From NCBI GenBank assembly GCA_964106915.2, contig OZ066924.1: a DNA stretch of 64,000 nucleotides; one strand, 5' to 3'. The stretch comes from Podarcis gaigeae (lineage: Eukaryota). The position numbers and the translations under genes are program-made. Below the pieces are notes generated by a model. That model saw only the letters and a program-made list of their open reading frames with translations, had not been told where the DNA came from and searched no databases. This document shows positions 2,141 through 61,479 of this stretch, one piece after another. The first letter of the stretch is position 1. Every line of letters starts with the position of its first letter.

Positions 2141-4158
2141 GTTTAGTTTAGTGTGATTTATTACGGCCATTGGCCCATATCTAAAACAATACATCAAAAT
2201 TTATCCATAAACAATACAATTTAAACAGTTCCAAGTTAAAACACCCATATAAAACCAATTTTACTTCAATTAAGTAAACACTATACACAATAGGCTCCCT
2301 CTATGTCAACCGCAATTCAAATCCCTCATATTTTGGGGGATATGCGTCTTAGTTCTGGCACTTATTGATGGTTCTTAAGTTTGGCTAAGCTGTCAGAGTC
2401 ATACAGTGATCCATTTCTCCTCTTATGAAATAAGACATTAATCAGGTATCTAGCGACTGCAAGGGATCTACTTGAGTCTTCGTCGTTTAATAAGTATATT
2501 ATTTGGGCTTCCTGAGGTCTGTCAGCAATTCTCGATAAATATGGGGCCAGAAACTTGGACCGTGAAGCCGAATGTAAAGGACAACAGAAGATTATATGAT
2601 ATAATGATTCTATACATCTGTCCGTTGGAGAGTCTGTTACCCAACACATTTGATGGGAAAACATTGAATCTAGCCTTTATAAGGGCATACCTGTGCATCA
2701 CCACAGATAAGGTAGTTAAATAAGATGGAAGTTTCGTTGGTGGTGTTAAGCCAAGGTTTATCGGCGAACTGGTGCCACCACCTGTCGCAATTTTAAATTG
2801 TAAATCCATCTCCTCTAATTTGTGAGTTATAATTCTCTTGGCAGAAATTAAATCCAATTTTAGTAGTTCAGATGGAGCTAGTCCTAAGGACACAAGTTTC
2901 CCATGTATTATTTTTGCCCAAGGGCTAGGGAAGTCGTCTCTCCAGAGACACTGTATCAAGTGGAGATTTGGAAGTTTATGCCATAATGCCAACCAGTAAC
3001 AGAGGATGCATTTCCATAATGTGGTTTCTAGAGATGTAACATTTAGTTCGAACCGTATAGCAGTATTGCCTACACACCTGGGTAATTTTAGCAACCTTCT
3101 TAGCAGCTGGTTTTGGATTACCTCCAATTGGGTTAGATTAACAAAGGACCCCCATGTTGGGATTGCATATGCTATTGTTGCAATCACCTTTGTCTTGAAA
3201 ACTTTTAACACTGATGGAATATGGAAAGCCCCATCTGAAAAGAAAAAACGCAGTAGCGCAAAGGAAAGGGCTTTAGCTCTATTTATTACATATGCAAGAT
3301 GGACCTTCCAGCCCATGTTGTAGAAGGACTCCCAAGTATTGAAATTTAAAGACTTGGTCAATGGCTTGGTCCAATTATAGGTTTTTCGACTTTGGACTTG
3401 GCATGATTAATTGTAAGAAAATTTGATTTGCAGTAAGCATCAAAATTTTTTAGTGCCCTCCTAAGGCCAACTCTTGAGAAAGATAGGATCACTGTGTCGT
3501 CTGCGTAGAGTAGAAGGGGGCAACGATATTGGGCAAGACGGGGGGCGTGGATCGTTTCTTGAGAATCTATCAGAGGCGCCCTCATATCACTTATAAATAG
3601 ATTAAAAAGGGTCGGAGCAAGGATACATCCTTGACGGACACCTCTATTGATGGTTACTGAATTTGAGAGGTCACCGGCCGGAGTGATTCTCACCCTAGCG
3701 GCCGATCCGTCATGCAATTTAGTTATTAGCCACAAAAGTCTTTTGTCTATTCCCATCGTGCTAATTTCCCCCAAAGTAATCCTCTGGGGATGCTGTCAAA
3801 AGCGGCCTTTAAATCAATAAAGGCCGCACAAAGTTGGCCTCTATTTGGGGCAGAATATTTCCGGGCAAGGTGGTATAAAACTAAGACATGATCAACCGCT
3901 GACTGATTCGGTCTAAAACCAGCCTGTTCAGGCCCAATCAGGTTGTTCTCTTCGGCCCACTTAGTAAGCTTAGTTAACAAGAACCGTGCATATATTTTCC
4001 CAATTATTGACAATAAACTGATATTCCTGTAATTTCCCGGATCATCTGTCGTGCCCTTTTTATGAATTGGAATAATAATCGCATCCTTCCATATTCTTGG
4101 AACCTTCCCACTGTTGTTTACGGCATCAAAAGTAACGGCCAGGATTTTCGCCCACCAA
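2141..4158 (-). mobile_element. 5'-truncated non-LTR retrotransposon, RTE-X-like LINE, with 12-bp TSD
   Basis: TSD CCCATCTGGTCA at 2129-2140 and 4159-4170. The minus-strand 3' end reads ...GGCCAATGGCCGTAATAAATCACACTAAACTAAAC (polyA signal plus short repeat tail). RT motifs lie in ORFs 3747-4211, 3358-3774 and 2522-3361. Clade assignment is from motif style only. Confidence 0.85.
2362..4158 (-). pseudogene. Frameshifted reverse transcriptase and C-terminal domain of the RTE-X-like LINE
   Basis: Motifs PIHKKG..PGNYRNISLLS, EQAGFR, FIDLKAAFDS, GVRQGCILAPTLFNLF and YADD; FQYLG in a shifted frame; C-terminal ESLYHIIFCCPLH zinc-knuckle remnant. Split over four ORFs by frameshifts or deletions. Confidence 0.9.
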
Positions 4159-4842
4159 CCCATCTGGTCAATCTCTCTGCTTAGGAGCCAAGTTGAACAT
4201 AGGTTGAACAATCCAGTTGGTAGGGTTGGAGAATGCCCTGAACCATTTGGATCAGCTCCACTAAAGGCGCTCTGTGTAACCAGTGAGGAATTTCTTTGCT
4301 GCCACCACCACCACGCAGAGTAGGGCTTGATAATGAAGTTCTAACTGCGTTTTCTGACAGTCATATTCACAGAAAGGGTTTTGCCGCTTACATGGAAGGT
4401 ATATACTGGAAGATTCTGATGTAAGCAACAAGTTCATAGTGACAGCTGCCAGTGAGCACTCTTACAGCCGGCACACAATTTTATAGCTTTATAAATCCCA
4501 CTGATGTCAGCTGAGCTCACATTGGTTCTCTAAGAAAGAGGCTGCTGTTTAGATTTGCTACTTTCTTTCGCACTGGCGGAGAAGGTGGCGGCAGTGGCAG
4601 AAAGAGCTATGAAGCTCCCCGTAATCTTTTTCATTTGGCAAGTCTGGTTTTGGATACCAGAAAAACCAATCTCCCTCACCTGTCCCTCATGTGAAAATGT
4701 TTGGTAATTAGGATTGATCTATACCTGACAGTGGTTAACTTTTACTTCTTAGGAATATTTACTATTACTTATTTCTAAGTAATTGGAACTAAAGGCTGTA
4801 CACTTCCTCTCATATGCGTCTTGTTCGTATCCAAAGATAAGC

Positions 4843-17861: not shown

Positions 17862-18106
17862 TAATGGTACCTCTGGTTACGTATTTAATTCATTCCGGAG
17901 GTCCGTTCTTAACCTGAAACTATTCTTAACCTGAAGCACCACTTTAGCTTATGGGGCCTCCTGCTGCTGCTGCACTGCCGCCGGAGTACGATTTCTGTTC
18001 TCATCCTGAAGCAAAGTTCCTAAACCGAGGTACTATTTATGGGTTAGCGGAGTCTGTAACCTGAAGCATATGTACCCTGAAGCGTATGTAACCCGAGGTA
18101 GCACTG
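17862..18106 (-). mobile_element. Tigger-like MITE, inverted copy of 16849-17085
   Basis: Internal sequence is the reverse complement of the first copy; ends GAGGTAGCACTG|TA. Confidence 0.9.
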
Positions 18107-22611: not shown

Positions 22612-22672
22612 ACTGAAACAGAAGTTTCCAGACCCTTCTATATAGTGAGAAGGTGGGGAGGGGTATTACTCA

Positions 22673-23269
22673 GTACAATGCATCATCAGAGATCTACAAC
22701 CTCTCCTGGACAATGACAGTTCTCTTTCTCAAGCTCTGGGAGGAAGACCTTTCATTGCCTACAGACAGCCACCCAGTCTTAAACAACTCCTAACCCACAA
22801 TAATACTACAACCAGACCTAACACGGACACTGGCACCAGAGCCTGCAGTAAACCCAGATGCCAACTTTGCTGCCACATACACCCGGACAACACCATTACT
22901 GGCCCCAACAACATCACACATACCATCTCGGGACTATTTAATTGCTCATCGTCTAACATTGTGTATGCCATCAAATGCCAACAGTGTCCTTCAGCTCTCT
23001 ATATTGGACAAACAGGCCAGACCTTACGCCAAAGAATAAACGGACATAAATCGGACATCAGGAATCACAAGACAGAGAAACCAGTAGGAGAACACTTCAA
23101 TCTCCCAGGACATTCTATACAAGATCTCAAAGTAGCTGCTTTACTACAAAGGAATTTCAGAAATAGACTGGAAAGAGAAGCTGCTGAATTACAACTTATC
23201 ACCAAACTTAAAACCATGGAGAAACCTGGCCTGAACAAAGACCTTGGATTCTTATCTCATTATACATGA
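22673..23269 (+). CDS. Penelope ORF 3' part: Cys-rich linker plus GIY-YIG endonuclease (no start codon, 5'-truncated)
   Basis: Uninterrupted frame VQCIIRDLQP...AYRQPPSLKQLL...CSKPRCQLCCH...FNCSSSNIVYAIKCQQCPSALYIGQTGQTLRQRINGH...PVGEHF...LEREAAELQLITKLKT..PGLNKD. Confidence 0.85.
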   Translation, partial: VQCIIRDLQPLLDNDSSLSQALGGRPFIAYRQPPSLKQLLTHNNTTTRPNTDTGTRACSKPRCQLCCHIHPDNTITGPNNITHTISGLFNCSSSNIVYAIKCQQCPSALYIGQTGQTLRQRINGHKSDIRNHKTEKPVGEHFNLPGHSIQDLKVAALLQRNFRNRLEREAAELQLITKLKTMEKPGLNKDLGFLSHYT

Positions 23270-57018: not shown

Positions 57019-59707
57019 ACTGGTGTGAAGTCATTTTGGCTGATAGAAAAGGCAGTGCTTGTGGTATGTGGTTGGTCAAACAGCTTTTCACTTTATGATG
57101 AAGAAAAGGATACTTGCATCTTTCATGGATGCCTGATGTGCCTATGGCTGCACATGCCAGTCCTGAGATAAATGCATGGACAACTGTTGCCTAGACATGT
57201 CATATTGTCTAAGCAAGCCTCCCCGGAACAGGGGAAACCTTAAAATATGTGTAGCGCCCACGTGGGCAGAGTGTGTTTATGTCTCATTTTGAGAACCATT
57301 GTGGTAAGTGTTGCATAACATGAAGTTACATTTCTGTATTTATTTATTTCAGACATTTTTATACCTCTTATCACCATAGTTTCTAAGTGATACAAAACGG
57401 ATACTGATTTGCTAAAAAAAATCAGAAAATCAGAAAAGCTTACTTAAAATGCCTGCTGATTTTTTTTTTTACAAGTCTTCGTCAGGCACTTGAGATTTAA
57501 CATGGCAGTTGATGCTGCTACTTGTCTCCAGTTGTGTGTGGGAGTTAAGGATGAAAAAATAGTCTGAAGTCAGTAGGAACTGATGCTTAACACTTCAGTG
57601 CAATGAGAGTACTTATTTTGGTGCAAAATGAAAAGCACAGCCTCTAAGCTAATGTAACGACACACCAACGGAGGTAATATTTTCTTCAATAAATGTAAAG
57701 TCTGCTTAATACAATAGTTTGATTTATTAGTCAGAAAGACAGAGAAGGAAAGCATGCTCAGATTCTATGAGAGGAACAAAACTTGCTCTTGTGATTGCAT
57801 CCTATTAACTTGGAAAGAAAAACTAGTGCCTACCAATCCATATGAAGGGAATGTAACCCAGATATTGCAAAATCCAGAGTGTTAGTGCTAGAAATAGCAT
57901 GCCACCCCATCGCTCTTCGTAGCTATCCTGTTCAAAAGATTGCCTGCTAGGACCGTTGTGCGCTCACAGCATGGGGTTCTGTTGACAATGCTGCTTCTCA
58001 TTTTATTTAAACTGTGGTTTTCTCTCAGTTGCACTTTATGAAATCCCAGTCTGAGCGCTCGGGCTGCCATAGGTTATTGAAAGTGAAGCCTTTGCACCCA
58101 GCTGCAATTGCCTTTTTAAAGGAACTTTACTGGTGTAGTGACATGTACAACACATTTTCTCTCAGGGGAGCCGAGGCAAGTATTCTTGGCCAGTTAAGAG
58201 ATGCATTCTAGAAAGTGGTTACCAAAGCAGCTCTGTGAGAGCCAGAGAGCGAGTTAGGGGAGGCACTTGTTGCTGTCTGCAAGGTTTACAGTACCCTCTT
58301 GCTTTTCTAATTGGAACTAATTGGCTGAGGAAGCTATTTGTAATCTTTGAGTCATCCTGCTCGCTGCATTGTTCCAACCACTGCCTCTCCTTCCCCTATT
58401 AAATATGGTGAGTAGCACTCAGAGCTCTTGTGTCTCAAGAGATGGTATGTGCATTATCTGCAGTCCCTCAGCTACCAAAGACTTGTCAGTCACTCCGACC
58501 TCCAAGGACCTCTGTCAAAGCCAGCAAACAAGGCACTGGGGTCTGAAATGGCTTTTTTATTTTCCATTCTGGGTTCCTACCCTTCTTTTTTTGTTGTAGG
58601 GAAAGAAGGGGGTGTAAGATTCCCTAATTATTTGGAAGTGTACGCAAACACTAAGAAGCATTAGGAACATCAAGTGGGGCTCTGCTTTTATTAACAAACC
58701 CTTTCTTCCCTAAATAGATGTCAAACATATTATTCTCTCTCAGACAGTTAACCTTTCATCTCTCCTGTAAGAAAAAAAAAATCCACTCTGTGCCAGGCTT
58801 ATTTGCTATTTAAAATAGTTTAAAGTAAGTTGGGGGTGGGGGAATGTCATTTACAGTGACACTCACTTTTCTTTCCTTTCTTTTTTTAAAAGTACCTTTC
58901 AGCATTGCGATTTGTGTTCTGGGTTTTTTAGAGGTACATTTCATAAATGTCACTCCCAATAGTGGCCTCTACCTTCCACAAAATACCACAAGAAAATCCA
59001 AAGGGAGCCAGCAAGGCTGAGCAGGACCTCCATCCTTTTCCCATGCTCACATGAACTGCACATAGATGTAAAGATCTTTCTGTTTCAATGCATAAGTCGT
59101 TTCCCCAGTTCTGTTGAAGGCAGAGCACCTCCATTTATCTCTTTTCTCCCTGTGCAAAATATCTAATGTGACTTAATTATTAACCCCCCCAAAAAATTAT
59201 TTTACAGAGCTGTGGGGAGGGACTTGGGGAAGCATTAAAATTACTTCTTCAACACAGACCGCTATTTCGTATCAGTTTCCCTTATCTTTTTCCTCCTGCC
59301 TTTCCCCAGTATTTCTGTTGTCTCTTTTCTGCTGTTTGAGAGCTATCAGTGATGCGGTATTAATGGCTGCATTGATATCAGTGAGGATAGGATCTGAACC
59401 AGTAGGTTCGAACTACAATAAAAAGATTTAGACTATACATTAGGAAGCAATTCCTGAAGTTACAAGTTCAACCGTGGATGAGACTACTTCAGAAGGTGGT
59501 GGGCTCTTCTTTAAGTAAGGTCTGGGTGACTGTGTTTCAGGCTTGTTGTAGGAGTAGATTTCTAGCATCCAGAGGTTGGTCACAGACTGGATGACTTCTG
59601 AAGGCGCTTCTAAATTTGATTCTCTAACACCGATCATGGTAGCACAACCACATTTCTAACCATGCATGAAACTGCTGTTTGATACTAGTTGTGTTAATAA
59701 TAATAAT

Positions 59708-60467
59708 TGTCAGGACTGCCGCTAGGTCCCAGCTCACAGAGGACCAACGCCCAGTGGATATTATATACAAAAGTCTTTATTGAAGTTTAGTTTCCATTTC
59801 CAAGCTCTGGGCGCGCAGGCCCACGTCTTAACGCTAGACCGGCTAAGTCCCCTCTGACTCACTGCTCCACCCACACCAGTTTAAGATTCTAGCCCGGCTC
59901 CACCTCTTGCGCTGCTCTTTCCTGCGTTGGGTCCTTCTGCCCTCTGGGGTTCCCTCCTTCCTGGACTCCTCTGACGCGGAGCCTCCTGAGTCTTGCCCCT
60001 CCCTCCGGCGGGCTTTAGGACCTGGCTCCCTTCCCGGGCTCCCCGCTGTGCCGCGCTCCTGTACATTTGAACTTGGCGCGCGCGCCCAGCCGGTGACTTT
60101 CCTTCTGACCGTTTCCCCGCTTCCTGATGTGGGTGTTGCCAAACCTGACTCCTCTCCTCCCTCTGGTGGTGAGGACACTGGTCCCGACTCCTGGGACTCC
60201 CCCTCCCCACTGCGCTCTGGTGGAGACGCTGGCCCTGATCTCCAGCTGCTGTTCAGAGACTCCCCGCTGGCCCCTCCCTCTTGAGGTTTCTCCCTTGGAA
60301 TCTCCCTTGCTCTGGCCACCGGCGCTCCCTTCTGTGAGTCCTCCGATTCGCTAGAGAGGCTTGTGGAATAACTCTGGCCACTGTCACTGCCTGCGCCCCC
60401 CTCGTACTCCTCCTCCTCACTCTCCATTTGCTCCCCCTCCTGTGTCTCTCCTTCTGAACCCCTGACA
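59708..60467 (-). mobile_element. 760-bp solo LTR, GC/CpG-rich (young)
   Basis: TGTCAGG...CCTGACA inverted termini; 5-bp TSD ATAAT at 59703-59707 and 60468-60472; minus-strand TATA-like CTTAAA at 59885-59880 and AATAAA at 59781-59776. Confidence 0.92.
59843..60427 (-). CDS. Putative LTR (U3)-encoded 194-aa protein: acidic N-terminus, Ser/Pro/Gly-rich middle, Arg-rich C-terminus
   Basis: ATG at 60427 (MESEEEEY...); the frame is open from the LTR's 5' edge to the stop at 59843; contains RRTQRRKEQRKRWSRAR. Coding status is unproven. Confidence 0.4.
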   Translation of the reverse strand: MESEEEEYEGGAGSDSGQSYSTSLSSESEDSQKGAPVARAREIPREKPQEGGASGESLNSSWRSGPASPPERSGEGESQESGPVSSPPEGGEESGLATPTSGSGETVRRKVTGWARAPSSNVQERGTAGSPGREPGPKARRREGQDSGGSASEESRKEGTPEGRRTQRRKEQRKRWSRARILNWCGWSSESEGT

Positions 60468-61479
60468 ATAATAATTATTATTATTCCACTGAATATTAAA
60501 AACAATACAGCATCAGACATTAAAAACTTCCCGAAACAAGGCCGCCTTCAGTTGTCTTTTAAAAGTAAAATAGTTGTTTATTGCCCTGACATCTGCTGGG
60601 AGGGCGTTCCACAGGGCAGGTGCCACTACCGAGAAGGCCCTCTGCCTGGTTCCCTGTAACCTCACTTCTCGCAGTGAGGAAACTGCCAGAAGGCCCTCAG
60701 CGCTGGACCTCAGTGTCCGGGCTGGATGATGGAGGTGGAGACGCTCCTTCAGGTATACAGGACCAAGGCCATTTAGGGCTTTAAAGGTCAGCACCAACAC
60801 TTTGAATTGGGCTCGGAAACGTACTGGAAGCCAATGAAGATCTGGTGTTATATGGTCTTGGCAGCCTCTCCCAGTCACCAGTCTAGCTGCCGCATTCTGG
60901 ATTAATTGCAGTTTCCGAGTCACCTTCAAAGGTAGCCCCACGTAGAGCGCATTGCAGTAGTCCAAGAGGGAGATTTTGTGTTAATATCTGCAAGCACAAC
61001 ACTGCACCATAGTTTCCTCTAAAATTGAAAGGGGGGTGCAAGTCTCTGTGCTTCATGCAGACAATGTGGGGGGAAGCTTCAGGTTACTTTTGATTGGGAT
61101 TGGAACTGTTATGGTGGCTGCTCTGGCATGCAATAGTAGAAAAATTGAAATTGATTTGAGTGAAACAGTAGATCAAAAAATATGGCAAAAATTGATCACT
61201 TTAAGCCAAAGGACATTACGGTCCATAAAATAAACAGCACCCTGCTTGAATGTATGCATGTAGAAATACAAAAAATACATGTAGCAGTCACTTTTAGCAC
61301 CTTGGTTTTAAAAAGCGTGAGCGTGGTCATCAGGAAATAACAGTACAGGCATTTTAAATCAAAATAATAAATTAAATATCACTTGAGTCATCCAATTATT
61401 TTGTACACTAAGCTTGGATTTTCTTAGCTTCTAGGCAAATTTTGCATCTCCCAAGCACATCATTGCTTGCAATGAAAAT

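Follow-up and report, generated by a model that had tools for sequence, protein, structure and literature searches.

A lizard solo LTR whose U3 region carries the probable C-terminal end of a Ty3/gypsy pol, from a family enriched at chromosome ends

The 64,000-nt stretch of Podarcis gaigeae DNA analysed here (the window) holds, at 59708-60467, a solo LTR that its sequence assigns to a young Tf1/sushi-type Ty3/gypsy family. The long open frame in its U3 region is, with high probability, the last 207 codons of that family's pol, translated as a pol tail. Copies of the six subfamilies distinguished here, A-F, are enriched 30- to 200-fold at chromosome ends. We lean towards reading the tail as a flexible integrase arm that would serve nuclear import and chromatin tethering and contribute to the end bias or site choice.

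The LTR, its U3 frame and the parent element

The LTR runs from TGTCAGG to CCTGACA between two copies of ATAAT, as the first-pass annotation of this DNA had described (Table 1). Because the LTR is embedded in an (AAT)n run, the ATAAT duplication is consistent rather than unique; ATAAT is the target at 3 of the 42 solo-LTR sites in the target profile. The AAT microsatellite surrounds the LTR at 59695-59707 and 60468-60485, and adjoining it on the minus strand is a 155-codon frame (60513-60980) without a Pfam match, which we take to resemble the end of a LINE ORF2.

Table 1. Features of the solo LTR and its borders in the window
Feature	Coordinates	Strand	Remarks
Solo LTR, 760 bp, subfamily A	59708..60467	minus	TG...CA ends
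Target-site duplication, left, ATAAT	59703..59707	plus	
Target-site duplication, right, ATAAT	60468..60472	plus	
Last 207 codons of pol, encoded in U3 (probable C-terminal tail of integrase), and stop	59843..60466	minus	In frame with pol in full-length copies
Internal ATG, start not conserved	60425..60427	minus	Met in 3/6 and Thr in 3/6 subfamilies
Basic segment, predicted helix, bipartite-NLS pattern match, most constrained part of the tail	59888..59941	minus	From dN/dS, structure model and pattern
TATA-like box over invariant Leu-Asn codons, dual-coding	59879..59885	minus	Leu codon TTA in 6/6 subfamilies
Start of R (predicted 5' end of the transcript), able to pair with the primer-binding site	59845..59855	minus	Self-priming pairing
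Polyadenylation signal AATAAA	59776..59781	minus	LTR nt 687

The long minus-strand frame reported in the first-pass annotation is present: it is open from the second base of the LTR (60466), with 207 sense codons followed by TAG at 59845-59843, and measures 194 aa from the ATG at 60427. Its product has the acidic, Ser/Pro-rich and basic parts in the order claimed there, with Gly enriched in the middle as well. That description carried the caution that biased DNA yields long frames by chance. Dinucleotide shuffles attain 207 codons in 3.2%, 4.9% and 8.0% of 2000 trials under three schemes, and frame length alone is barely beyond chance for purine-rich DNA. Neither the U3 peptide nor a 145-codon antisense frame matches a Pfam family, and a search of the ESM Atlas gave no usable match, a result that speaks neither for novelty nor for absence.

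A DNA search of the lizard's own genome returned 811 candidates, and all 40 that were scored are 100% identical over 760 bp; a 39-nt U3 probe has 2253 exact matches in the genome. Many LTR matches are paired 5826 bp apart, and eight LTR pairs were taken as full-length parents of subfamily A. All eight copies are 6.6 kb long, with a 5-bp target duplication, TG...CA LTRs and a polypurine tract that directly abuts the 3' LTR. The gag frame (370 codons) is open in seven of them and the pol frame (1566 codons, ending in U3) in six; the remaining two pol frames are interrupted, upstream or within, by a stop in one copy and a frameshift in the other. Pfam identifies Retrotrans_gag and a zinc knuckle in gag, and in pol, in this order, protease, reverse transcriptase, RNase H, integrase zinc finger and core, and a Tf2-like SH3 domain. 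The best solved relative is the Ty3 Gag-Pol (E 4e-134). The full-length copies hold no env and no further long sense frame.

Pol does not end with integrase: a chromodomain-derived segment comes next, then some 150 acidic residues, then the polypurine tract and finally all of U3. The stretch after the chromodomain has about 360 residues, of which U3 encodes 207-232, and the whole tail is without a Pfam match. The suggestion that the frame might start upstream of the 3' LTR was thus correct, and the proposed look beyond the polypurine tract finds it extending into pol. The first-pass annotation had further proposed that the frame encodes an accessory or RNA-export protein. Its coding function is upheld by a dN/dS of 0.33, whereas a separate gene is made improbable by the position of the frame at the C-terminus of a 1566-codon pol in an element without env. 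The internal ATG is no conserved start: subfamilies C, E and F have Thr at this position, and only A, B and D have Met. Recombination has left the solo LTR behind in the window, and its frame is a passenger separated from the parent gene.

A single-sequence AlphaFold model of the 426-aa tail has a mean pLDDT of 47.8 and is disordered except for the last helix of the chromodomain and residues 393-416 (pLDDT about 70-74), which are the basic segment. A bipartite-NLS pattern matches in all six subfamily tails. No leucine-rich export-signal pattern occurs in any of the six, contrary to the supposed likeness to RNA-export proteins, and the tails searched hold no PxVxL pattern. The only [FYH]xLxP match falls in the last helix of the chromodomain, outside the tail. 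The chromodomain that precedes the tail is, by its sequence, degenerate in A-F, where the aromatic-cage residues are missing. The segment of subfamily A has no Pfam match of its own and has lost the cage Trp; it aligns with relatives that score 43 and 31 bits against Pfam Chromo, among them a further family, G, at 43 bits.

Homologue searches returned mainly lacertid proteins, the named ones from Podarcis, and one fish chromodomain that lacks such a tail. P0011 and P0012, two distant proteins, have a like plan and end in a basic run and Leu-Leu-Cys-Trp; the P0012 tail, used as query against longer proteins, had no match, and this counts as weak evidence. Family G is the P0011 family, present in this genome with LTRs of 412 bp. 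Its pol enters the 3' LTR in the same phase, with a stop at LTR nt 310 shortly beyond the self-priming site of G, and its U3 tail of 103 codons ends in a basic run and Leu-Leu-x-Trp. Copies of G are somewhat older and keep more of the chromodomain. One contig (C32), with 2% of the genome, carries 37 of the 75 G copies plus many other elements, from which we infer a W-like, non-recombining chromosome.

The sequence evidence places the family among the Tf1/sushi (V-clade) chromoviruses of the Metaviridae by domain order, priming and LTR ends. Shared with that group are a gag with zinc knuckle, the PR-RT-RH-IN order, the lack of env, the SH3 domain and chromodomain-derived segment, and the 5-bp target duplication. 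The LTR ends fit the Sushi motif TGTYANR...CNTNACA as given in the accessible text of PMC3601003. Self-priming in place of a tRNA site is shared as well (PMC4600332, PMC6317226, in the portions available), with the start predicted here, and holds for family G too. The present family differs from the group in its roughly 360 post-chromodomain residues, in the loss of the cage residues in A-F and in its strong end bias.

Selection on the frame, priming and promoter

Each of the six subfamilies was represented by one natural copy, with LTR identities of 69-90%. The representatives of C, D and E came from a protein search, which favours open frames, B from a DNA search, and F as a bystander. Pol passes through U3 in one phase in all six. 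All 15 pairwise comparisons of U3 give a dN/dS between 0.21 and 0.40, at a dS near the value for the integrase core, and the maximum-likelihood codon model gives the U3 frame an omega of 0.33 across the six subfamilies (2dL 98.8 versus 1). The other sense frames give 2.4 and 1.1, and the antisense frames 2.2, 1.5 and, for the one with shared third positions, 0.48. By segment, omega is 0.15 over the last 42 codons, 0.34 in the pre-LTR tail and 0.067 in the integrase core. Variable sites number 63, 86 and 131 of 180 at the three codon positions, and 48 of the 66 invariant residues (Met and Trp excluded) vary synonymously, with such variation found at the invariant Arg and Ser of the basic segment. 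The frame is open to its end in 25 of the 27 B copies found by DNA search.

The first-pass annotation had proposed that indels in a coding frame should come in multiples of three. The distances from LTR start to TATA-like box (583, 583, 607, 583, 646 and 649 nt) all differ by such multiples. Raw DNA gaps do not help: multiples of three make up 47 of 150 gaps in U3 and 11 of 48 beyond the stop codon, but alignments of diverged pairs break into fragments, which leaves these counts uninformative. Three further checks set out there, for stops or frameshifts, for a dN/dS of about 1 and for a basic motif lacking conservation, left the frame standing; the motif proved conserved across subfamilies, within the strongly constrained last 42 codons. 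It is conservation rather than length that marks the U3 frame, as read from the sequences, as a real, selected coding region. The invariant Leu-Asn-Trp uses a single codon for each residue over the TATA-like box and is therefore dual-coding, and part of the Leu-x-Trp conservation may be promoter constraint.

The sequence that follows the 5' LTR is not a tRNA site and is complementary to an 11-nt stretch of the LTR that lies exactly 30 nt after the CTTAAAC box in six of six subfamilies. The pairing holds at 10-11 of 11 positions in each subfamily; a substitution on one side comes with a matching one opposite, and no site pairs better with a foreign partner than with its own. The folded leader includes this helix (z -2.6). 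Self-priming is described as a signature of the Tf1/sushi group in the accessible text of PMC4600332 and PMC6317226. The self-priming site places the predicted transcription start at about LTR nt 613, which is 13-22 nt before the end of the pol stop. With the start at the end of the frame, U3 would therefore enter transcripts only at the 3' end of the genomic RNA, and the frame in a solo LTR is predicted to lie out of reach of that LTR's own promoter, which could not transcribe it.

Directly after the 5' LTR, all A-F elements carry GTAAG (961-966 in L033), which is splice-donor-like and lies within the primer-binding site. Its first two bases are dispensable for pairing in most subfamilies, and family G does not have it. 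The sense strand of the LTR holds no canonical G-quadruplex pattern.

Distribution at chromosome ends

The end survey compared both terminal 10 kb of 20 large contigs (40 segments) with 32 interior segments at fixed round coordinates. Copies of A-F are present in 32 of the 40 terminal segments versus 1 of the 32 interior ones, in 21 of the 28 ends of the later, systematic batches, and, among the 29 ends with telomeric repeats, in 28. They cover 42% of the terminal bases versus 0.24% of the interior, and at 20 ends an element is joined directly to (TTAGGG)n. A probe for subfamily A has 18 matches in the 40 ends against 0.59 expected. The complete genome-wide lists place 12 of 68 E insertions and 11 of 34 C insertions within 100 kb of an end, an enrichment of 66- and 122-fold respectively, which reaches 133- and 221-fold within 25 kb. 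About 70-80% of the C and E copies and more of those of A, the window copy included, lie in chromosome arms. Family G occurs in none of the 40 terminal segments and has 0 of 75 insertions within 100 kb of an end (Fisher p 1.2e-6); it is 4-fold enriched within 1 Mb of ends, and may owe its absence from the ends to its age.

One junction pattern matches 33 times; 32 of the matches are on large contigs, and 27 of these fall no more than 100 kb from an end. The outer junctions in telomeric flanks, 27 in all, share the CTAAC/GTTAG phase, the pentamer favoured in the target profile of the 42 solo-LTR sites, and are therefore marked as integrase products. Averaged over the telomeric repeat, the profile gives only a 1- to 2-fold advantage, and local sequence preference was rejected as a sufficient cause of the end bias. 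The LTR 5' ends at telomere junctions differ in sequence in 18 of 18 cases, several being closest to non-telomeric copies, and the junctions involve four subfamilies and elements in either orientation; copying of one and the same insertion therefore fails to explain them. One A-in-E junction is common to two ends (of C1 and C23), so duplication inflates the end counts somewhat, and some subtelomeric copies have common flanks (L101-L103).

At several ends (L215, L216, L238, L231, L233, L214), young A elements are nested in older E or C elements beside the telomere, in stacked arrays, and the last 70 kb of contig C31 hold seven telomere-repeat junctions. Five element-telomere-repeat junctions lie 0.3-3.3 Mb from contig ends (C1:138137873, C16:88790133, C19:2406492, C24:59385479 and C31:13872559) and are possibly former ends or interstitial telomeric repeats.

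A predicted role for the tail and competing readings

If the tail is an integrase arm, genomic RNA with U3 only at its 3' end would allow its translation only from the 3' LTR, as part of a Gag-Pol that would be made by frameshifting. The tail would stay on integrase after protease cleavage, and its basic end helix would act as an NLS that brings the integration complex into the nucleus and would also tether the complex to chromatin. As a targeting arm, the tail would take over from the decayed chromodomain, a part that the LTR-encoded CR motif plays in plant CRM elements. It probably contributes to the family's strong preference for chromosome ends, and as a cause of that bias its role is a predicted one that may hold. 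A stronger claim, that a vertebrate LTR element actively homes to telomeres by docking an LTR-encoded arm on telomeric chromatin in place of the decayed chromodomain, is tentative and rather unlikely. Were homing true, lacertid chromosome ends would be mosaics of telomerase repeats and nested gypsy elements, the telomere counterpart of CRM. If the tail is a targeting arm, a vertebrate element would offer a telomere-homing peptide that is short and can be tested, along with a natural system in which to study telomerase-maintained ends that tolerate 6.5-kb interruptions. Against a targeting arm stands family G, which also has a U3-coded basic tail yet no telomere bias; a basic tail alone is therefore insufficient.

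The analogous tail of G argues at the same time for the possible, though doubtful, reading that the pol/integrase tail is a linker and NLS only and that the end bias comes from elsewhere, a reading also favoured by the bipartite-NLS pattern in all six tails. The bias would then have its source, with like doubt, in the integrase core, the SH3 or chromodomain remnant, open access to terminal chromatin, or retention and copying among ends, and the junction common to two ends and the common subtelomeric flanks fit the last of these. The merely 1- to 2-fold mean preference for telomeric repeats, the 18 differing LTR 5' ends with several closest to non-telomeric copies, and the mix of orientations and of four subfamilies at the junctions weigh against copying alone rather than for the tail as the cause. 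At the other extreme, a chance open frame in purine-rich U3, conserved merely as promoter, is scarcely credible: shuffles do reach its length in 3-8% of trials, but the omega of 0.33, the excess of third-position changes, the free synonymous sites (48 of 66 invariant residues) and the 25 of 27 open B copies speak against it, and the pairwise dN/dS and codon-model omega refute it.

The stand-alone Rev/Rex-like protein, binding or exporting RNA and made from the internal ATG or from a leader-to-tail spliced RNA, is improbable. HIV Rev and HTLV Rex contain an Arg-rich helix, and nef, sag and bel overlap U3 in their coding. The tail resembles these in its Arg-rich predicted helix, which is strongly constrained, and in its coding overlap with U3, and the splice-donor-like GTAAG after the 5' LTR in six of six subfamilies would suit such a spliced RNA. 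It differs from them in lacking an env, a separate gene, a conserved start and an export-signal pattern, and in being fused to pol. The frame joins pol without a break, the promoter is located beyond its downstream end, and the GTAAG is part of the primer-binding site and missing from family G. Arg-rich helices are commonly RNA-binding, and the one found here sits beside long acidic, disordered tracts, features that would suit a tail acting on Pol within the particle, where it would bind element RNA for packaging or as a self-priming chaperone rather than chromatin. That role is distinctly improbable: Gag already carries a zinc knuckle, and the integrase C-terminal extensions of characterised elements serve import and targeting in the accessible text of PMC4700185 and PMC3059260.

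Several known systems bear on the integrase-arm reading. Plant CRM group A is alike in that its polyprotein frame runs into the 3' LTR, and it differs in its plant host, tRNA-Met priming, CR motif and centromeric location, against an animal host, self-priming and telomeric bias here. No sequence link of the tail to plant CRM was detected by Pfam, which has no match for the tail, and the likeness is one of convergent layout, not of membership. The targeting domain of yeast Ty5 is not known to be LTR-encoded. Ty5 is likewise an LTR element biased to telomeric chromatin, but it belongs to another superfamily (Ty1/copia), and about 90% of its insertions follow Sir4 targeting, against 18-32% (E, C) within 100 kb of ends here. 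Its integrase C-terminal domain binds Sir4 and so targets telomeric silent chromatin (PMC4700185, accessible text). For an integrase tail encoded in an LTR, the precedent lies in the CRM elements, in the available portions of PMC3059260 and PMC3605345.

In the literature searched, which is short of most subscription papers, no U3-encoded integrase tail and no telomeric insertion was found for a vertebrate LTR element; the U3-tail layout of a vertebrate element may already be on record in element databases or older papers. SART/TRAS, MoTeR, Zepp and Tx1-1_ACar, which are classed as non-LTR or Penelope-like, use target-primed reverse transcription, whereas the present family is an integrase-using LTR element that is also found genome-wide. 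They are alike in placing full-length copies in canonical telomeric repeats at a fixed phase (PMC10088271, accessible text). The telomere-inserting elements covered in that part of the review are SART/TRAS, GilM/GilT, Zepp, MoTeR, Athena and the anole Tx1-1_ACar, and such elements are of non-LTR types there, yeast Ty5 apart (PMC10088271). In the family described here the LTR is dual-coding, with a whole promoter region that also encodes about 210 selected integrase residues, a layout otherwise found described, in the literature searched, for plant chromoviruses only.

For annotation, thousands of solo LTRs with this open frame give rise to spurious 'hypothetical proteins'. P0013, P0014 and P0008 in the Podarcis lilfordi annotation are such entries, predicted from these LTRs and in some cases partly out of frame. 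Copies of A and B on different contigs (L013, L028, L044, L045 and L053) have one common target site in a 16-bp tandem unit, which suggests a hot spot in a host repeat; the unit is also present in the window, at 18055-18093. The window further holds a broken LINE reverse transcriptase on the minus strand (2522-4340) and, on the plus strand, a GIY-YIG frame of a Penelope-like element (22649-23269).
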